Shown here: positions 5,131 through 24,513 of the stretch, piece by piece | How positions within the stretch are numbered: position 1 is the stretch's first letter | Layout: each line of letters begins with the position of its first letter | Source: a virus | IMG/VR virus record: IMGVR_UViG_3300010355_000409 | DNA: 28,989 bases | Direction: 5' to 3' (one strand) | The notes under the pieces: model-generated | The model's database searches: none | The model's input: the letters and a program-made list of their open reading frames with translations, nothing else | Told to the model about the DNA's origin: nothing | Made by a program: the position numbers and the translations under genes

Positions 5131-7227
5131 ATGACCACAGAAGAAGCCCTACAGTATGTCAGATCAGGCACAGCAACTCCACCAGCTTTGAATACCGAAG
5201 ATGATAAAAAGTTCAACTGGGAAGATATTGCCGCTGGTGGATACTCTGCTATCAACTCTGCGTTGTTTGGTATCCCAGACGTTCTCGTCAAGGTAGCAAG
5301 CTCTGATGCCTACAAAAACCTTCAGGCTCTCAGAGAAAGAAACAAAGCCGCCTCATTGGTTGGAGACATTGCTGGTGCGTTTGCTCCTACTGGTGGACTT
5401 CTTGCCAAAGGTATCGGAACTGGTGCCAAGCTCGTTGGACGAGGACTCCAAGCCGCAAAGCTCGCCAAGGGTGCCGCCACTGCCGCCAAAGTTGCCAAGG
5501 TTGCTGATACCGCTGGCGACATTATCAAGGGAACCAAGGCTGTTAAGGGACTTGGTGGTGCCGTAGGCCGAGGAGCCTTGGCAACTGCTGAAGCTACTCT
5601 CCCGAGGCTTGTAACCGGTGAGATTGATCTTGGAGAGGCCGCACAGGGTGCCGCACTCGGTGGAGCAGTCGGAGCCGCTGGATACGGGCTCGGAAAGGCC
5701 ATTGGACGCATTCCAGAGCTTTTCGCAGAGGCTCAAAACTGGGCAAACAAGACTATCCTCAAGCGAGCCGACATTACCAACAAGGTTATGCGGGCGCAAG
5801 AGCAGTTTGCCGGTGGAGATGTCAAGAAATATGTAAAAGAACTCGCCGATCTGGCTGATGAGTTTGAACTTCACAGGGAACCAAAGCTCGATGAGCTTGT
5901 TGACAATGTGAAGAAAACTTGGCGAGATATGGCAGAAAAGTTTGACGCTTCTGGATTTACCACCGACGCTCAAAAGGTTATCGACACTGAAGATGTGGCT
6001 CAGGCTATCAAACGCAATGTTGGAACCATGGACGCGGTAAACGATATTGTAACCAAGACTGAGGCAACTGAAGGTTTTGGCAACAAGAGAAAATATCTTC
6101 AGGAGATCATCTTCGGAGATAAGACTGGTGAAGATGAAAAGAAGATTGCTCGTGCCATCCTTGGACAGATTGAGGAAGAGGCAGAAAAGCTCTCTGGACT
6201 CGATGTAGGAAAGGCTAAGGAACAGTGGAGAATGATGAAGCCGTTTGAGATGGCCGACAAGCTCGAAGATATGCGAATCTCTGGTGCTGGAACCGTCCGT
6301 GGTTCCGATACTGCCTTCAAGTTGGCACTCGGTGGAGTCGGAGCGGCAGTCGGTGGTGGCTCTCAAGTGAAGGGTGTCATCGACGATCCTTCAAACCCAG
6401 ATGCTTGGTCCAAGCTCATTACCGCCTCACTTGGTGGCTCTCTGGCCGGTGCGGCAAACAAGCAGATTGGCATTACGCTCGCCAAAGCTATTCGAAAACT
6501 CCCTGCCGACAAGATTGCTGAGTTTGCAGAAAAGATTGCCAATGGTAAGGTGGCTGAAGTATTGGCCAAACTGCCAAAGACTGAAGCTCTCACGAGCGTA
6601 GCTGGAAAGCTCATTTCAGAGCGTTTGGCTGACGAACCTATCGCCACTCCTGTTGGAGAAGAACCAGTTTCGGCAGATTCACCGGAAGGACAGGCTCTAC
6701 AGGAAAAAGAGCAACAGTTTGGTGAAGAATATATCACCAGACTTGGACAGAAGATGGTTGAATACTGGGCTCTCAACTTTGCTGATACCATGACATATGA
6801 GGAATACGTCAAGAAGGTTGGCGAGATGACGGGCAACTTTGATCCTCGCAAGACTGCCAGCTTCTTCTATCGAGATAAGAAAGAAAGATCAAACTTCCTC
6901 CGCGATCTTGATGTGGCTGAAACCCTCAAGGGAAAAGATATTTCCTCAACATTCGCCAAGCCCGGACTCTTCTCGTCCATTCTTGAGCCAGCACAGTCGG
7001 CACAGCAAAAGATGGATCAGGCTACTGTCATCGATACTATTGCCAAACTCGTCACTGATGAAGGTAATCTTCCATCCAAGGCCACCAAGGAAACCATTCA
7101 GGCTGACATCTCTGCCATCTTGGACTTGGAAGCCACACCAGAAGAGAAGCAACAGCTTCTTTTCCAAAAGCTCGAAGAGAAGTACGGCATGAACTATACC
7201 TCGCTCAAAGAGCTTGGACTGGCATAA
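5131..7227 (+). CDS. Large Gly/Ala/Lys-rich virion protein (possible internal/ejection protein), function unknown
   Basis: 698-aa ORF in the structural block. AAGGA lies upstream of the ATG. The composition resembles podovirus internal proteins, but I recognised no diagnostic motif. Confidence 0.75.
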   Translation: MTTEEALQYVRSGTATPPALNTEDDKKFNWEDIAAGGYSAINSALFGIPDVLVKVASSDAYKNLQALRERNKAASLVGDIAGAFAPTGGLLAKGIGTGAKLVGRGLQAAKLAKGAATAAKVAKVADTAGDIIKGTKAVKGLGGAVGRGALATAEATLPRLVTGEIDLGEAAQGAALGGAVGAAGYGLGKAIGRIPELFAEAQNWANKTILKRADITNKVMRAQEQFAGGDVKKYVKELADLADEFELHREPKLDELVDNVKKTWRDMAEKFDASGFTTDAQKVIDTEDVAQAIKRNVGTMDAVNDIVTKTEATEGFGNKRKYLQEIIFGDKTGEDEKKIARAILGQIEEEAEKLSGLDVGKAKEQWRMMKPFEMADKLEDMRISGAGTVRGSDTAFKLALGGVGAAVGGGSQVKGVIDDPSNPDAWSKLITASLGGSLAGAANKQIGITLAKAIRKLPADKIAEFAEKIANGKVAEVLAKLPKTEALTSVAGKLISERLADEPIATPVGEEPVSADSPEGQALQEKEQQFGEEYITRLGQKMVEYWALNFADTMTYEEYVKKVGEMTGNFDPRKTASFFYRDKKERSNFLRDLDVAETLKGKDISSTFAKPGLFSSILEPAQSAQQKMDQATVIDTIAKLVTDEGNLPSKATKETIQADISAILDLEATPEEKQQLLFQKLEEKYGMNYTSLKELGLA

Positions 7228-7237
7228 GGAGAAATAA

Positions 7238-7519
7238 ATGACTGGAATAATGAACAAGTTTGTCGATATGGCAAAGTCTGAATATAAACCAAAAGATCAC
7301 ACCTCACAAGAAGTCATGGCAAAGGCTGAAGTAAAAGAAAAGAAACATTTTGTCAGGACGCTGGGCGATGTGCGAGTGGCCGCAGAGGCCCAACGCATCT
7401 TCAACCCGGCTCTTCCTCCCACTGTTCCCAAAGGCCCAACAGCGGCTCAGATGGAGTCTGGAACCACGACTGCAATGGATACTACTGGCAACTGGGGAAC
7501 TCCTGAAAGGATAGAATAA
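7238..7519 (+). CDS. Hypothetical small structural-module protein
   Basis: TAAGGAGAAATAAATG context. ATAATG overlap with the next gene. Confidence 0.65.
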   Translation: MTGIMNKFVDMAKSEYKPKDHTSQEVMAKAEVKEKKHFVRTLGDVRVAAEAQRIFNPALPPTVPKGPTAAQMESGTTTAMDTTGNWGTPERIE

Positions 7520-8538
7520 TGGCCGTAAAATACGACTCAACCTTGCTTGCAACTATAAACGATCCTCTTGAAATCCAGAAGGCCGATCTCGATCTATTAA
7601 AAAAGATTAACGAACAGGCTGGACTTTTGGAGACACAGACGATCAAGCTGTCTACAGGCTTCAATACAGAGTCGGAAGAAATAAAAAATATCGATGATCT
7701 TTCAGATTCAAGGTTTTTTACTTTCAACAGCGAGGCTATAGGCGCACCGATAACTGGATCACAATACACCAATGCCCGTGGAATATCTTTTACTTCTGGT
7801 GATAATAGAACCCAGATAGCCAACATTACAAAATCTGGCGGAATCCTTTGGAGAACAAGAGAGAATGAAGTGTGGAGCAGGTGGAGAACCCTCATAGACA
7901 ACATCAATGTGTCTTCTATTTACAGAAACGACTTTTTGCTTACAGCCAGTGGAAACGTGACGGATGGTTTTATCACTACAGTTGTTGCTTCTGGGACTGT
8001 TGCTCAAGGAGCGGTTGCCGATGATCACCCCGGAAGCGTCAGAATAACCAGTTCAACTACTACAAATAGCGGAGCCTATGTTGCTACACAAGCCAATGCC
8101 TTGACGATAAAAAATGTAAAGCAGTATTCGGCCATTTATAGTCCGCTGTCATTCGTGGCAACGGTTACAACGAGACTGGGTATTCATAATACTTTGACAG
8201 CAACCGCACCGACACTCGGTGTTTATTGGGAGGCGGTTGGAGCCAGTTGTACGGCAAAAGTAGTTGGAACTTATGGAACCTATACATCAAATACGGTAAC
8301 TCTATCTACAGGAGTATGGTATCAGTTTTCCATCAAAATACTTGGTAGCACGGCTTACTTTGATCTTTATCTTGACGATGGAACCTTGGTTGCGTCGTTT
8401 AGCACTGGGATAACTCTCAACAGCACGGCAAATAATGCTTGCTTTATATCAACAAAGGCCGGAACTGCGAAAACAGCACTCGTAGACTTGGACTTGGTTA
8501 AGTTGAATATGTTGGGTGAAAACCCTCGATATGTGTGA
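7519..8538 (+). CDS. Second tail-fibre-like protein (knob-like N-terminal part, ConA/LamG-like beta-sandwich C-terminal part)
   Basis: GAPITGSQYTNARGISFTSGDNRTQ..WRTRENEVWSRW resembles fibre knob domains. C-terminal VWYQFSIKILGSTAYFDLYLDDGTLV resembles lectin-fold strands. Pattern-level evidence only. Confidence 0.65.
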   Translation: MAVKYDSTLLATINDPLEIQKADLDLLKKINEQAGLLETQTIKLSTGFNTESEEIKNIDDLSDSRFFTFNSEAIGAPITGSQYTNARGISFTSGDNRTQIANITKSGGILWRTRENEVWSRWRTLIDNINVSSIYRNDFLLTASGNVTDGFITTVVASGTVAQGAVADDHPGSVRITSSTTTNSGAYVATQANALTIKNVKQYSAIYSPLSFVATVTTRLGIHNTLTATAPTLGVYWEAVGASCTAKVVGTYGTYTSNTVTLSTGVWYQFSIKILGSTAYFDLYLDDGTLVASFSTGITLNSTANNACFISTKAGTAKTALVDLDLVKLNMLGENPRYV

Positions 8539-18186: not shown

Positions 18187-19767
18187 ATGGCAAAATATCA
18201 AAAGGGACAGTCTGGAAATCCTTCCGGGCGTCCAGCGGGCGTAAAGAGCTATCGAACGATGGTTCAGGAAGCCTTTGTAAACGTAATGCAGTCTCCAACC
18301 AAGAACGGTCAACAAACCGTTCCGTATTATATTGCCTTCTTGGATAAAATGAAGAAGTCTGCACTGGAACCCGGATCACGGGCCAACATGTTTTTTGCCA
18401 ATCTGCTATTGCAAGAGAATGTACTGGATGATATAGACAGGCAGTTGAATAAATCTAAACGAGAAGACATGGACTTTATGTCTTACCGAATCTGGAAACA
18501 GTGCCACGACATGCAACAGAGAATACTTTTATCAAAAGAAAAGTTCATTTTTGTCATGGCTGGACGCCGTGCTGGTAAATCTGAGACAAATAAGTTCAAG
18601 GCAGAGGAGATAGCGACTACAGTAGACAATGCCCGTATTCTCATTATCGGACTGTCATTCACCCGAGCACTGGAAATCTATTGGAATGAGCTTGTGGCAG
18701 ACTTTACTGCCATGGGTATTGACATAGCTGAACAAAGACGGACAGAAGGTTTGATCCGCCTGTCTAACGGTTCTGAGATACACCTTGTAGGCAATACAAC
18801 AGTAGATGAGCGAGACAAGCTCAGAGGATCAAAGTGGCACCTTATCATTATTGATGAGGTTCAGTCACAAAAGGCTTTGCCCATTCTGATCGATGAGATA
18901 CTTGAGCCAACGCTGTTGGACTATAAGGGACAGATGATCCTGACTGGTACAGGCCCAAAGGTTCGAGGAACGTATTGGGAAATGCTTTGGACAGATCAGA
19001 GCCGCAAGGCCGCTCGCTTCAACTTCAACATCAAAGATAATCCATTCATTCCAGATTATCTGACGGTTCTTGATCAGATTAAAATAGACAAGAATCTCAC
19101 CGACAACTCACCACTGTTTCAACGAGAATACCTTGGACAGATTTCCTATGATGATGACGCCTTGTGCTTCAGGCTCACTGAAGCAAACAATCTGAACAAA
19201 CAGGAAATGGCCAACTGGATCAACTCTCAACCGAGGACAGACATCAAGTTCTCTGCTGGTCTGGACTACGGTTTCACTGATGCTGATGGATTTGCCATCA
19301 TCATGTTCTCTACAAGTAAGCCAGAGAAGTGGCTTGTTTATGAACATAAGGGCAACCGTACTGGCATTACAGAACTATCAGACAAGATCAAGGAAGGTAT
19401 GAAGTATATTGAAACCGATCCTGTCTTTCAGTCTATTCCAGATCGCTTCTTCTACATTTACTCAGACGCAGGGGGAGCCGGTAAGAAGATTACATTCGAG
19501 CTTGCGACACAATATGGTTTACCTTGCCTTGATGCCTACAAAGTTGATAAGGATTTCCAAGTCGAAATGCTTCAGGAAGAAGTCCGAAACGGTTCTCTCA
19601 AGGTTGATCCAGAAGGTGTGTTCGCCGATGAGGCACTGAAGACTGTCTTTGCCCGTAACGATAGGGATGAGCTAACCCGTGTCATTGACGATGATATATT
19701 CCACCCAGACATTATGGATGCCATTCGTTATGCACTTTCGCTTATCTGGGTAAACTACAAAAAATAA
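18187..19767 (+). CDS. terL: Terminase large subunit
   Basis: Walker A VMAGRRAGKSE, Walker B WHLIIIDEVQ. C-terminal RNaseH-like nuclease acidic residues (GLDYGFTDADG, HPDIMDAIRYAL). The N-terminal KGQSGNPSGRPAG motif is common in phage terminase-region proteins. Confidence 0.93.
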   Translation: MAKYQKGQSGNPSGRPAGVKSYRTMVQEAFVNVMQSPTKNGQQTVPYYIAFLDKMKKSALEPGSRANMFFANLLLQENVLDDIDRQLNKSKREDMDFMSYRIWKQCHDMQQRILLSKEKFIFVMAGRRAGKSETNKFKAEEIATTVDNARILIIGLSFTRALEIYWNELVADFTAMGIDIAEQRRTEGLIRLSNGSEIHLVGNTTVDERDKLRGSKWHLIIIDEVQSQKALPILIDEILEPTLLDYKGQMILTGTGPKVRGTYWEMLWTDQSRKAARFNFNIKDNPFIPDYLTVLDQIKIDKNLTDNSPLFQREYLGQISYDDDALCFRLTEANNLNKQEMANWINSQPRTDIKFSAGLDYGFTDADGFAIIMFSTSKPEKWLVYEHKGNRTGITELSDKIKEGMKYIETDPVFQSIPDRFFYIYSDAGGAGKKITFELATQYGLPCLDAYKVDKDFQVEMLQEEVRNGSLKVDPEGVFADEALKTVFARNDRDELTRVIDDDIFHPDIMDAIRYALSLIWVNYKK

Positions 19768-20059: not shown

Positions 20060-21798
20060 TGAAGCGAGATACAGACTTTATTCTGAAAGACATGGCCCAG
20101 ATGGAAGGCTTTCTCGCTCGTCGGGATGTCAAGTACCGTCGCAACTTTAACCGCTATTACAACAACTTCAACCGCAATGAGGACATTTGGACTGTTTATG
20201 GAAATGTTATTGCCTACTACACCATGCAGGATGAAGAGGCTGGCATCATTCCTTACATCAATATCCTTCGTTCGTGCGTTGATACCACTGCAAGCAAGCT
20301 CAGTCAAACCAAGGTTCGCCCCTTCTTCAATCCAGTCTTGGGAACCTTTAGGACTGTAAAAACCTGTAGAAATGCTCAGGTGTTCTTTGATGAATACTAT
20401 GACAAGGAAAAAGTTTATCCGAAGTCTGTCAATGCCATCACCGATGCATTGGTGTTTGACATGGGTGTTCTTTGGATTGACGATGAGACTGCTACCATCA
20501 AGAAACTGTCTCCTTGGGAGTTTATCTTCGATGTGGCTGAGATGACGTTTGGCGATCTAACCCGAGTAGAGGTTAGGCGCAAGCAGTATCCTCTTACTTC
20601 ACTCAGACATCTCTTGAAGAAGGGAACAGAGTATTATGCCCGTCTTGAAGATACGCCCAATGCCTACGTTGACTATCGTATCTACTATGATCTGATCAAC
20701 AAGGTTCAATACAAGTTTATTGGCAATGAGTTGTTCCAGACTCGCAAGATTGACTATGCGGTCGCACCGATGGTTTGGATGTACTACAAAGACCCGATCA
20801 AGGGAGCCTTCTCTGACTCCATGGTTGATGTTGTCTATCGTCTTCAAAAAATGATAGATGATCTAACCTACAAGATTTCTGTGGCCGCTGAACTGTCACC
20901 TGCCAATCTGATATTCGTTCCACGAGGGGCTGACATTAAGACTTCAATGATCGGATCAGCCAAGATCGGTGACATATTTGAATACAATATGGCTGTGTCT
21001 GGTGGAAACCCCATCACTGTTGCCACTCCCCCTGTCATTGATCCGTCCTATTTGCAGTTGCTTGAAATGTTTGAGCAGAAAGCCTACAACATGGTTGGCG
21101 TCAGCCAGTTGTCTGCACAGAGCAAGAAGCCCAGTGGACTCAACTCTGGTGTGGCTCTTCAGACGCTTGAAGACGTAGAGTCTGAACGACACAACGTCCT
21201 TCTCTCAACCTACATCCATTTTGTACAGGCTCTTGCCGAGCGCATGATCGAAGTTATGCCAGAGGATGCAGATGTACTTCCACGCCGTCGATCCCGTTCT
21301 GCTATTACTTGGAAGGATATTAAGAAGGAACGGGAAATGTTCAACATTCAGTTCTCTGCTTCTTCTTCTCTGTCTAAAGACCCGAAGGTTAAGATGGAAC
21401 AGATTGAAAAGCTCATTGGCATGAAGATTATTGATCCTTCACTTGCCGCAACTCTCTTGGAAATGCCTGATCTTGAGAACGCCTACTCCATTGCTACTGC
21501 CGCTCATGATATGAACGAAAAGATTATCGAACGTGTTATTGAGGATGGCCCCGATCCAAAGACTGGCATGTTCTATTTCTATGAGGGAACCAACATTCAG
21601 GCTCTCTTTGGACAGGCTATGAATACTCTCATGAGGCTTGATGCCAATGATGAAAAGCCAGAAGTATTGCAGAATCTTACTGCCTTTATTGCCCAGCTTA
21701 AAGACATGATGGATGAGATCAATGCGGCCCTTCAACCGCCCCCTCCTCCACCTGCCCCAGAGCAAGGGCCACCGCCACCTGAACAACCTCCCATGTAA
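20059..21798 (+). CDS. Portal protein (positional and size-based call)
   Basis: 579 aa between terL and the scaffold/capsid genes. Pro-rich C-terminal tail PPPPPPAPEQGPPPPEQPP. I recognised no unique motif. Confidence 0.75.
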   Translation: MKRDTDFILKDMAQMEGFLARRDVKYRRNFNRYYNNFNRNEDIWTVYGNVIAYYTMQDEEAGIIPYINILRSCVDTTASKLSQTKVRPFFNPVLGTFRTVKTCRNAQVFFDEYYDKEKVYPKSVNAITDALVFDMGVLWIDDETATIKKLSPWEFIFDVAEMTFGDLTRVEVRRKQYPLTSLRHLLKKGTEYYARLEDTPNAYVDYRIYYDLINKVQYKFIGNELFQTRKIDYAVAPMVWMYYKDPIKGAFSDSMVDVVYRLQKMIDDLTYKISVAAELSPANLIFVPRGADIKTSMIGSAKIGDIFEYNMAVSGGNPITVATPPVIDPSYLQLLEMFEQKAYNMVGVSQLSAQSKKPSGLNSGVALQTLEDVESERHNVLLSTYIHFVQALAERMIEVMPEDADVLPRRRSRSAITWKDIKKEREMFNIQFSASSSLSKDPKVKMEQIEKLIGMKIIDPSLAATLLEMPDLENAYSIATAAHDMNEKIIERVIEDGPDPKTGMFYFYEGTNIQALFGQAMNTLMRLDANDEKPEVLQNLTAFIAQLKDMMDEINAALQPPPPPPAPEQGPPPPEQPPM

Positions 21799-21842: not shown

Positions 21843-22406
21843 ATGAACGAAATGCATTCAGATGAACAGGCCGATGTACAACTCATTTGTCAGGTTCTTA
21901 ATGAGGAACTGGAACCGGTTATCACGGTTATCAAGAATATCCTCGACAAGATTACGGCCATGGACGATGAGCTTGATGGACTTGCCAAGGTCGTCAATGA
22001 AGAGATTCTTGGTGGTATCATCAATCTCTACAACACCAAGGAACGCATGTCTGGCATCAGTTCACTTTCTGAGAAGTATGGTTCCCTCATGGGTCCATAC
22101 AAGGATTTCTATTCCGAGCTTTCCGAGGGCAAGGACATCTACGAAGAGCTTTACAACGAGCTTGAGGAGTTTAAGCAGTCAGCGGAATCCGTTGACGACT
22201 CTGCCGTAGATGCCAAGGTTCAGGAGCTTGCAAACATGCTCAAGGCAAAGTTTGAGAAGGTTCGTGGAATGAGCGTCGGAGAAGAGAAACCCGTGGCCGT
22301 TGAAGTCGAGATCGAGAAATCCAGTGAAGCCGAAGCCCCGAAGGCCGATGAGCTTATCGACAAGATTCGCAAGATGAAGTCTCGCGCTGGCGATGTCAAG
22401 TTCTAA
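21843..22406 (+). CDS. Scaffolding-like protein
   Basis: Acidic, helical 187-aa protein between the portal and capsid genes. TAAGGAGAAATAACATG context. The track start at 21801 lacks an RBS. Confidence 0.7.
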   Translation: MNEMHSDEQADVQLICQVLNEELEPVITVIKNILDKITAMDDELDGLAKVVNEEILGGIINLYNTKERMSGISSLSEKYGSLMGPYKDFYSELSEGKDIYEELYNELEEFKQSAESVDDSAVDAKVQELANMLKAKFEKVRGMSVGEEKPVAVEVEIEKSSEAEAPKADELIDKIRKMKSRAGDVKF

Positions 22407-22409
22407 TGT

Positions 22410-22426
22410 GTTGGGCGTTGCCCAAC
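22410..22426 (+). other. Stable hairpin after the scaffold gene (no adjacent U-run)
   Basis: GTTGGGC-GTT-GCCCAAC. Confidence 0.4.
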
Positions 22427-22463
22427 CCGAAAAATAAAATCTTTTTCTAATAAGGAGAAATAA

Positions 22464-22512
22464 ATGGCTGTTACTTCTGACAGTGCCGTTCTTACAGTGT
22501 TCAAAGAGTGGT
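22464..22512 (+). CDS. Major capsid protein, candidate exon 1 (MAVTSDSAVLTVFKEW + first base of the next codon)
   Basis: Best-in-genome RBS TAAGGAGAAATAAATG, but the ORF stops after 16 codons. The exon end pairs with an internal guide sequence. Confidence 0.55.
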
Positions 22513-22573
22513 AAACCGTCGATCTGCCTCTCTATAATAAAACTGGGTGAACTGCTGGAAAAGCGTCAAAACG

Positions 22574-22586
22574 AGCATATTTATTG
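22574..22586 (+). promoter_or_regulatory. AGCATATTTATTG motif, copy 5 (inside the intron, 2 nt before the HNH ATG)
   Basis: Identical 13-mer to 14912-14924. Confidence 0.4.
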
Positions 22587-22588
22587 TT

Positions 22589-22957
22589 ATGATGGGACCA
22601 AAACCGTATAAACCAACAGACAGTAGATATGAATATGTCAAGGTGAAGATAGGTGGAGCTTGGAAAAAGGTTTTATATCATAGATGGCTATGGGAACAGG
22701 CTTATGGCAAAATACCTGCTGGAATGCAGGTACACCATAAGGATGAAAACCCAACCAACAATGATATAGACAATCTGGAAGTGGTGGATGCATTTGAGCA
22801 CAACTCAATGCATCATCTTGGGAATAAATACCCAAGTAGAAAACCACATGGGCCAGAACCAAACAGGAAGGCGTGGACAACTCGAAAAGCTCGATCAGCA
22901 TCCAAGCACAACGAAACCAATAAGAGTAGTTGTGAAGGTTCAACGACTAACGGGTGA
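22589..22957 (+). CDS. HNH homing endonuclease (intron-encoded)
   Basis: YHRWLWEQAYGKIPAGMQVHHKDENPTNNDIDNLEVVDAFEHNSMHH is an HNH_3-type motif. The last codons overlap the intron R element. The start could also be GTG 22547. Confidence 0.8.
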   Translation: MMGPKPYKPTDSRYEYVKVKIGGAWKKVLYHRWLWEQAYGKIPAGMQVHHKDENPTNNDIDNLEVVDAFEHNSMHHLGNKYPSRKPHGPEPNRKAWTTRKARSASKHNETNKSSCEGSTTNG

Positions 22958-23082
22958 GGATGGTAACCAATAATCCCGACACGAGCGCCCAGCATCGTGA
23001 AAGCGATGATGATATAGTCTGATCATACGGGATGACAAACCGTATGAAGTAGGGGATAAAGAGCCTCTACGATAACATAATG

Positions 23083-24431
23083 ACACCGACAAGGAGATGG
23101 AGTCTGTCCTTTGGAGGGCAAGCCCCGTTCTTCGTGACATCAAGAAAAACCGCGTTGGTGGAAAAACCTACAACTTCGCGGCTAACTATGGCTCTGGTGG
23201 AGCTTGTGCTGGTGATGCTACCATCGCCGCTACCAATGCCGCCAGTGGAACTTCAAAGTCCGTTCAGTTCGCCGTTACCCCCGGCCAACTCTTTTCCATT
23301 TTCAACGTGGGTGCTCAGGAAGTTCTCGCGTCTGAGAATATCCGTGGAGCGTTTGTTCCTGTTCCTGTCGTAAAGATGTACGATGGTACAGCCGCCTTTA
23401 GGCGCTTGTTTGCCACCGCTCTCTATGGTATGGGATTTGGTGAAGTCGGACAGGTTGGTGCTAATGCTGGCACCATCACTCAGGGTACTGCTAATACCAT
23501 CGACTTCGTTGAGTTCTCTCTCGTTGTCAAGCTCGACATTGGTTCTCAGTTCATCGTGACGAATGGTGCTCTTCCCTCCTCGAACCTCCGCACTCTCGTT
23601 TGCACCGTCACCGCCATCAATGGAACTTCCGTTACCTTCAATGCCGCCGCTGGTGCCAATGAGACTTGGGCCGCTACTGACTGGGTAGAGATTTATGGTT
23701 GCCGCTCTGGTGCCACACCTCTTCTTCCTGTTGGTCTTACTGGCTGGCTCCCAACCATCGCTGGACGCTCTGGTGGAACTTGGACTACCTACATTGGCAC
23801 GAGCTTCTTCGGCGTTGATCGCTCTGTGTTCCCTGATCGCTTGGCTGGTAACTACGTTGTTCGTAACACTGCTGGTTCTGAAAAATATGTTGACTGTATT
23901 GTTCGCGCTGTGAAGGCCGTTCGTAATGCCGGTGGAAATCCTCAGTGGCTCGTCATCAATCCTGATGACTACAACAAGGTGATCACCGAAGTCAACGCCC
24001 AGACCACCTATTTCCAGCAAACAGATATGGGTAAGGCAAAGGGAAAGAGCAACGAGTTCGTCCGTGGTTTGAATAACATGAAGTATGCCTTCAATACCTC
24101 TTGGGTTGACAAGGTTTACGATGATCCGTTCTGCCCACGCTTCACCGCCTACATTATCGATGAGGAAACCATCGAGTTCGCCATGCTCACGAACGGTGAC
24201 ACCCCGGTTAATGATGGCATTTCTGCCAACAACCCCGGAGTTCAGGCTGTTAATGGCGTCAGCACTCCTGATGTCAAGAACACCTACGCCTTCATCTTCG
24301 ATGACTACATCACTGTCCAGCCCGGAAGCCTCGCTTCTTCTGGCCCAGTGTCTCAGGTCATCCTTCAGCTTTACGGTTCGTTCGCATTGCGGGCACCCGG
24401 AAAAAATGCCGTAATAAATTTCGTTTCGTAG
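23083..24431 (+). CDS. Major capsid protein, candidate exon 2 (unspliced ORF reading 23097..24431)
   Basis: 444-aa ORF downstream of the scaffold gene, followed by a strong terminator. The N-terminal region is colinear with T7 gp10-type capsid N-termini (VF..E.VL.....S.V......GGK...F). ATG 23097 has AAGGAG abutting it with no spacer. Confidence 0.8.
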
Positions 24432-24454
24432 CTGATATAAAAAATGTTTCTTCG

Positions 24455-24491
24455 GGAGAGCCCTTTCTACAGAGGGCTCTCCTCTTTTTTT
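24455..24491 (+). terminator. Rho-independent terminator after the capsid gene
   Basis: GGAGAGCCCT-ttctacag-AGGGCTCTCC (10 bp) followed by TCTTTTTTT. Confidence 0.85.
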
Positions 24492-24513
24492 GTATTCGCG
24501 AACACTATATTGC

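Follow-up and report, generated by a model that had tools for sequence, protein, structure and literature searches.

A probable mobile group I intron with an HNH endonuclease gene in the major capsid gene of an uncultured tailed phage

The interrupted capsid gene

Here, we analyzed a 28,989-nucleotide (nt) stretch of viral DNA (IMG/VR record IMGVR_UViG_3300010355_000409; 'the window' below always means this whole stretch), in which the gene for the major capsid protein is interrupted by a group I intron containing an HNH open reading frame (ORF). All features described lie on the plus strand. Capsid exon 1 (22464..22512) encodes Met1 to Trp16 and the first base of the Tyr17 codon, and appears in the DNA as a 16-codon ORF (22464..22514) that reads MAVTSDSAVLTVFKEW and then stops. 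The intron itself occupies 22513..23082 (570 nt, IA-like, with G23082 as the terminal omega-G), as delimited by an Rfam model, intron-less alleles and covariation, and exon 2 (23083..24431) supplies the remaining two bases of the Tyr17 codon and continues to the end of the stop codon. Upstream of exon 1 are the ribosome-binding site (RBS; TAAGGAG) and spacer of the capsid gene (22451..22463; TAAGGAGAAATAAATG at 22451-22466, including the ATG). On the evidence below, we consider it very probable that an uncultured tailed phage has, at 22513..23082, a mobile, self-splicing, IA-like group I intron, which splits the Tyr17 codon of its HK97-fold major capsid gene.

The Rfam model RF00028 (Intron_gpI) matched 22483-23046 on the plus strand over its full length (model positions 1-253), with 52.1 bits (E 1.1e-10) against a curated gathering score of 50 bits. 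It was the sole Rfam match across the window, and no further introns or tRNAs were found there. This is what a preliminary description, made from the letters of the window, had proposed for the locus, and the strings that it quoted (RBS with ATG, 16-codon ORF, R and S elements, P8, exon end, guide, and the AAGGAG before ATG 23097) all lie where it had placed them.

The insertion point is 49 bases past the capsid start codon and was placed inside the Tyr17 codon (T|AC) because Lys14 and Tyr17 are invariant in a 54-sequence alignment. Joining 22512 to 23083 yields a 465-aa (amino acid) protein with the N-terminus MAVTSDSAVLTVFKEW-Y-TDKEMESVLW, which agrees at every residue with more than 100 homologues that are uninterrupted and 452-478 aa long (for example, P0010, MAVTSESAVLTVFKEWYTDKEMESVLWRASP). 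The DNA alignment gives the same answer: the intron-less relatives L006-L008 read ...GAGTGGTA[C/T]AC.GA.AAGGAAATGGA..., that is, the window sequence minus 22513..23082, and the insertion site of the intron-less allele in L007 reads ...AAGGAATGGTACACCGACAAGGAAATGG.... Both the 5' site after U22512 with omega-G at 23082 and the 465-aa product, as originally suggested, were thus recovered from intron-less alleles and homologues. One base of the junction is ambiguous, as cuts after A22513 and A23083 yield an identical mRNA; the ambiguity was settled to U22512 and G23082 because of the group I rule (U at -1 and a terminal G). The predicted spliced mRNA reads ...AAAGAGTGGT joined to ACACCGACAAGG..., and its product should release the tryptic peptides AVTSDSAVLTVFK and, spanning the junction, EWYTDK. 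A UAA stop straddles the 5' splice site (U22512 plus the AA of the intron; 22512-22514), and the same is true in all five intron variants described below. Because this UAA sits exactly at the splice site, ribosomes on unspliced RNA would terminate on P1.

Identification of the gene came only from fold comparison. Sequence searches gave no family: the 444-aa exon-2 ORF matched none in Pfam or PHROGs, and a PDB sequence search with a full-length capsid alignment profile returned nothing. An AlphaFold2 model was made for the full-length homologue P0001, which is 89% identical to the capsid protein of the window (predicted local distance difference test score (pLDDT) 81; predicted template modeling score (pTM) 0.81). 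When this model was compared with the PDB by Foldseek, the 35 best matches were, without exception, capsid proteins from tailed phages or viruses, including Mic1, A-1(L), SU10 and HK97, with E-values down to 1.8e-8. The modeled fold shows the interrupted gene to encode an HK97-type major capsid protein, in agreement with the assignment in the preliminary description.

Relatives and distribution of the intron

Among 5.8 billion proteins, a search found 324 homologues of the capsid protein; 120 of them were listed. Nearly all of those listed were 452-478 aa long, covered 97-100% of the query and started like the spliced product. Four (P0006, P0009, P0028 and P0032; 426-444 aa) were shorter and originated from intron-bearing genes; the contig of each has an HNH_3 gene just upstream of the capsid ORF. 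Four relatives (L001, L004, L005 and L207) contain an intron of 567-585 nt at the identical site, with the exon-1 ORF intact and the junction in phase, so that together with the window five distinct intron variants were available. On the other hand, all 80 of the 80 IMG/VR relatives were uninterrupted, and the distribution of the intron therefore appears sporadic.

Similarities of the capsid gene and of the intron did not follow each other. The capsid protein of the window is closest, among the variants, to those of L001 (81% identity) and L004 (80%), whereas for its HNH protein and the intron RNA outside the ORF, L005 is the closest (75% and 89%, respectively, compared with 61% and 77% for L001). 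This incongruence is consistent with lateral transfer by homing. An AAA codon at Lys14 was also tried as a mark of intron alleles (co-conversion or immunity) and rejected, as both AAA (24 occurrences) and AAG (33 occurrences) are found in intron-less alleles.

The R...S core motif pair was present in at least 118 IMG/VR contigs. One of them, L065 (IMGVR_UViG_3300045988_173030, 168 kb), has three copies within 1.2 kb on one strand (6699-7842), which may represent several group I introns in one gene, as in Staphylococcus phage Twort.

Structure of the ribozyme

The intron has the core P3-P9 together with P7.1 and P9.1, and P2 is absent. P1 (22505..22533) pairs the exon end AGAGUGGU (22505-12) with the guide GCCUCUCU (22526-33) around loop L1 (22513-25); its eight pairs include the U22512.G22526 wobble at the 5' splice site, and G23082 precedes the 3' junction. 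RNAalifold predicted this P1 independently, including the U.G pair that the preliminary description had seen at the cleavage site. The Rfam alignment placed P1 at 22487-22507 with a weak 3-bp P2 just 3' of it; this placement was rejected, as the alternative P1 gives the U.G splice site and was found by RNAalifold. Within L1, the P10 guide GUCG (22518..22521) pairs with CGAC of exon 2 (23087-23090) according to RNAduplex. P10 duplexes of 4-6 bp occur in all five variants, and their sequences differ, tracking the differences in exon 2 (CGAC/GUCG in the window; CUCGGA/UCCGAG, CUGAC/GUCAG and CAGU/ACUG in relatives).

The 5' strand of P3 (CUGGGUG, 22543..22549) pairs with CGCCCAG (22986-22992), as placed by Rfam. 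Here the preliminary description needed correction: it had built P3 from CCAGC (22989-93) and GCUGG (22554-58), and the latter belongs to the 5' strand of P4 (UGCUGG, 22553..22558), which pairs with UCAGCA (22895-22900). P4-P6, which could not be placed by eye at that time, are now placed from Rfam and RNAalifold: the 5' strands of P5 and P5a occupy 22562..22575 (P5, 22562-64 with 22889-91; P5a, 22572-75 with 22881-84), an insertion of ~300 nt is put by the Rfam alignment in the P5 loop, and P6 with P6a lies at 22902..22938 (P6, 22902-03 with 22937-38; P6a, 22907-12 with 22929-34).

The R element (22938-51) is GUUCAACGACUAA and the S element (23009-22) is GAUAUAGUCUGA; both were also located by the Rfam alignment. 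As the preliminary description had expected, they are able to form P7: the 5' strand UCA[AC]GACUA (22940..22949) can pair with UAGUCUGA (23015-23022) through eight pairs with a 2-nt bulge, in invariant columns, and P7 would be pseudoknotted with P3. RNAalifold also drew a GUC/GAC pairing of the S element with exon 2, which was discarded because S belongs to P7. Between P7 and P3' there is one composite hairpin, the IA-type peripheral element P7.1 (CGGG...CCCG, 22951..22978), whose outer stem covaries; a separate P7.2 was not evident. By this single composite hairpin, as in IA-type introns, the intron appears IA(2)-like. The P8 hairpin (CAUCGU-GAAA-GCGAUG, 22993..23008) lies directly 5' of S, where it had first been noticed, and is supported by Rfam and a per-sequence check; MAFFT misaligns this region, and each variant has its own hairpin of different sequence at the same place (for example, CAACAUG-AUGA-UAUGUUG). 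Finally, the two hairpins reported in the P9 region correspond to P9 (23023..23047) and P9.1 (23049..23070), both placed by covariation and the former also by the Rfam alignment.

The covariation set consisted of the window, L001, L004, L005 and L207 (Logan, ENA assemblies), with the ORF loop replaced by direct joining. From these five sequences, RNAalifold independently predicted P1 with its U.G, P3, P4, P5/P5a, P6/P6a, P7.1, P9 and P9.1, and compensatory double changes were observed in 23 of the 66 predicted pairs. They were distributed over P3 (two pairs), P5 and P5a (five), P6a (four of six), P7.1 (three), P9 (six of eight) and P9.1 (three). For the full model including the P7 pseudoknot, 96.3% of 350 cells could pair, compared with 33-41% when the 3' partners were slid by 1-3 columns, and the 23 double-change pairs compare with 3-6 in these slid controls. 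None of 500 shuffles matched any observed pairing measure.

The HNH open reading frame

The ORF within the intron (22589..22957, 122 aa) encodes an HNH homing endonuclease of family HNH_3 (Pfam PF13392; 62.8 bits vs a cut-off of 24.8, E 2.2e-17), as predicted for the space between the two exons, and many PHROG HNH families also matched it. It is intact in all five variants (122-124 aa), with the motif [VI]HHxD..N..NL..HNxxHH kept; a PDB sequence search with the HNH protein gave no match. The ORF begins in the terminal loop of P5a and ends in P7.1, so that its final ~77 nt overlap P5a', P5', P4', P6, J6/7, the 5' strand of P7 and P7.1 (C-terminus ...EGSTTN). Because the ORF reads through these core helices, the ribozyme core doubles as coding sequence. 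By its family and motif, the protein would be an active endonuclease, and the intron-less insertion site its putative target.

The intron-less relative L006 likewise has an HNH_3 gene (5929-6456; 175 aa), which lies two genes downstream of the capsid gene, overlaps the preceding ORF at its end and represents a further endonuclease insertion in this head module.

Alternative explanations

Several observations weigh against the reading of the element as a mobile, self-splicing intron. The RF00028 score of the window exceeds the threshold by just 2 bits; none of L001-L005 was detected at the gathering threshold, and when an E-value cut-off was used instead, same-site relatives scored 46.3, 37.7 and 25.7 bits, with no RF00028 match in L207 at E up to 0.01. 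The covariation counts come from just five variants that are related by descent, because exact-pattern scans of IMG/VR and Joint Genome Institute (JGI) metagenomes with the P1-guide-to-P3 string gave no further copies (0 matches). P1 and P7 (eight pairs each) do not vary among the five and, being invariant, are neither supported nor contradicted by covariation. Likewise, the incongruence argument was built on few sequences, no recognizable Shine-Dalgarno sequence was found upstream of the HNH ORF, which may limit its translation, and the endonuclease target is a candidate drawn from the intron-less sequences of L006-L008. The splicing claim, finally, is an inference from sequence data.

If the element were a decayed relic that no longer splices, the capsid protein would have 444 aa and start at ATG 23097, with the 16-codon ORF as a leftover. 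Gene callers do annotate such capsids in the relatives P0006, P0009 and P0028 (440-444 aa), and an AAGGAG stands immediately before ATG 23097. However, this AAGGAG abuts the ATG without a spacer, and the same bases form Lys-Glu codons in intron-less genes. More than 100 homologues conserve the 21 N-terminal residues, among them the invariant Lys14 and Tyr17; all five diverged intron-bearing genomes have kept the exon-1 ORF and a junction in phase, and the ribozyme helices have stayed paired through 23 double substitutions. A relic is thus very improbable. The intron may also be denied altogether, in which case a free-standing HNH gene would separate a shorter capsid gene from a small ORF upstream of it. 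Such genes are common in phages, and L006 has one elsewhere in its head module, but the covariance-model match, the structural covariation and the R/S core motifs all speak against this explanation, as does the fact that removal of 570 nt precisely restores a conserved protein; we find it scarcely credible.

With an intron accepted, splicing could still use another in-phase G near omega-G 23082, namely G23088 with the acceptor at 23089, an option also raised by the preliminary description. The product would read ...KEWYKEME... and have 463 aa, and all variants do have a G at exon position +6. This acceptor was rejected because it would delete the conserved Thr18-Asp19, which is present in the listed full-length homologues of ~60% identity or more. 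The 6 nt concerned also occur in intron-less DNA alleles, the conserved P10 pairing treats 23087-90 as exon, and blastn similarity to other phage introns stops at 23082/23083. Splicing at 23089 is accordingly highly unlikely, and 22512-23083 is retained as the predicted splice junction.

On this interpretation, the correct capsid protein has 465 aa rather than 444 aa, and the spliced form is the one to use in structural, proteomic and phylogenetic work. Capsids from four related contigs stand in public protein collections without their full N-terminus because gene callers start after the unrecognized intron. Furthermore, Rfam at its curated threshold finds only one of five homologous introns, which implies that this intron type is under-annotated in metagenomic phages. 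The five variants and the many intron-less alleles also form a small natural data set for homing into an essential and very highly expressed gene.

Proposed mechanism

The structure suggests how the element may work. A late transcript would be read from the strong RBS at 22451, and ribosomes loading before splicing would halt at the UAA across the 5' splice site. Once the intron had folded, P1 would offer U22512.G22526 to attack by exogenous guanosine, exon 2 would be aligned by P10 (22518-21 with 23087-90) and omega-G 23082 would be exchanged into the guanosine-binding site of P7. Ligation of 22464..22512 to 23083..24431 would then produce the mRNA for the 465-aa capsid protein. Judged from these sequence features, splicing and catalysis are expected to occur in vivo. 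At intron-less capsid alleles, the HNH enzyme would make a nick or a cut near ...GAGTGGTA^CAC..., and repair would copy the intron in (homing). A more speculative and rather doubtful idea, which parallels the intron endonuclease gp210 of phage PhiPA3 (PMC11620839), is that the HNH enzyme might serve as a weapon against co-infecting intron-less relatives, cutting their essential capsid gene at its most conserved N-terminal patch; the UAA might additionally couple termination to ribozyme folding.

Comparison with known introns

Group I introns in capsid genes have already been documented, and the element described here is a mobile element of an ordinary, textbook kind for phages. By description, a close comparison is the capsid intron of mycobacteriophage LittleE, for which splicing was demonstrated by reverse-transcription PCR and N-terminal sequencing (Pope et al., 2013; PMC3706429). 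In each case, an intron of group I type with a putative homing endonuclease lies in the gene for the major capsid subunit, and exon 1 ends in U and the intron in G. The LittleE intron is also sporadic among close relatives, as that of the window appears to be; the phage lineage, host type and insertion site are different, and the LittleE intron is larger (820 bp). Lactococcal phage Tuc2009, as cited in two reports (PMC3706429, PMC2504315), carries its group I intron in the gene for the major head protein, and thus shares with the window such an intron inside a head or capsid gene in a phage of low-GC Gram-positive bacteria. This likeness, too, is by description, and we regard the two capsid proteins as unrelated in sequence, given that the spliced capsid protein had no tblastn match in 50,697 phage records. 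The same records also gave no megablast match, either to this region or to 25 kb of the window, and by these searches the phage appears to belong to a lineage without a cultured relative.

By sequence, the closest introns are those in the tape-measure genes of Clostridium (perfringens) phages phiCP13O, phiCP34O and CPQ4 and in the TerL gene of Streptococcus thermophilus Brussowvirus phages. Between 22894-23083 and their 3' core, which extends from P6/P7 to the end of the intron, identity is 72-79%, and the match ends at the 3' splice site; RF00028 scores of the Clostridium tape-measure and Brussowvirus TerL loci were 51 and 33.7 bits, respectively. These introns also interrupt late structural or packaging genes, but the genes and insertion sites are different, and their 5' halves (P1-P5) have no blastn-detectable similarity to that of the window. 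In addition, the S. thermophilus intron is only ~290 nt, between two annotated TerL coding sequences, and too short for an endonuclease ORF. Similar stretches were noticed in Proteus phages vB_PMG_YP1 (73260-73357) and 3H10_20 (687-784), which match P6-P7-P7.1 (22894-22991) at 76-77% and have no annotated feature; they are likely to be unannotated group I introns in cultured phages.

The td, nrdB and sunY introns of phage T4, of subgroup IA2 (for a review, see PMC2988022), have an IA core with an additional pairing that lies between P7 and P3'. A peripheral helix loops out their endonuclease ORF, a stop codon occurs in frame near the 5' splice site, and they home into intron-less alleles. Their enzymes are of the GIY-YIG (I-TevI, I-TevII) or HNH-like (I-TevIII) type and are encoded in the P6a or P9.1 loops. 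By description, the intron of the window differs from the T4 introns in that its ORF, which begins in the P5a loop, extends across the P6-P7 core, and in that P2 is absent.

Genomic neighborhood

The genes upstream of the capsid gene follow the order TerL, portal and scaffold. The large terminase gene (18187-19767) had distant tblastn matches, the portal gene had weak matches to phrog_156 and SU10_portal, and an acidic scaffold-like protein of 201 aa is encoded just before the capsid gene. The portal protein ends in a proline-rich low-complexity tail (...QPPPPPPAPEQGPPPPEQPPM; 21730-21798) immediately before the scaffold gene. The scaffold-like ORF was listed from ATG 21801, which has no RBS, whereas the in-frame ATG at 21843 has a consensus RBS (ataaggagaaataac). 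The start is probably at 21843, giving 187 aa; the scaffold genes of relatives encode 182-187 aa in L005, L006 and L207 and 202 aa in L002.

The RBS of the capsid gene has close counterparts in the window. Its 16-mer TAAGGAGAAATAAATG recurs identically at 7225, ahead of the gene at 7238, and each of the ATGs at 2816, 7238, 16104 and 21843, the four sites at which near-identical strings had been reported, follows the motif (t/a)aaggagaaataa(a/c). Just past the scaffold stop (22411-22450), the arms of a hairpin (GTTGGGC-GTT-GCCCAAC) match perfectly over 7 bp, and A/T-rich sequence containing an interrupted T-run comes next. This hairpin was not among the calls of a simple terminator scan; in front of the capsid gene, it could serve as a leaky terminator or influence RNA stability. 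After the capsid gene, a strong intrinsic-terminator-like hairpin with a 13-bp stem (seven G-C pairs) and a T-run is located at 24454..24493.

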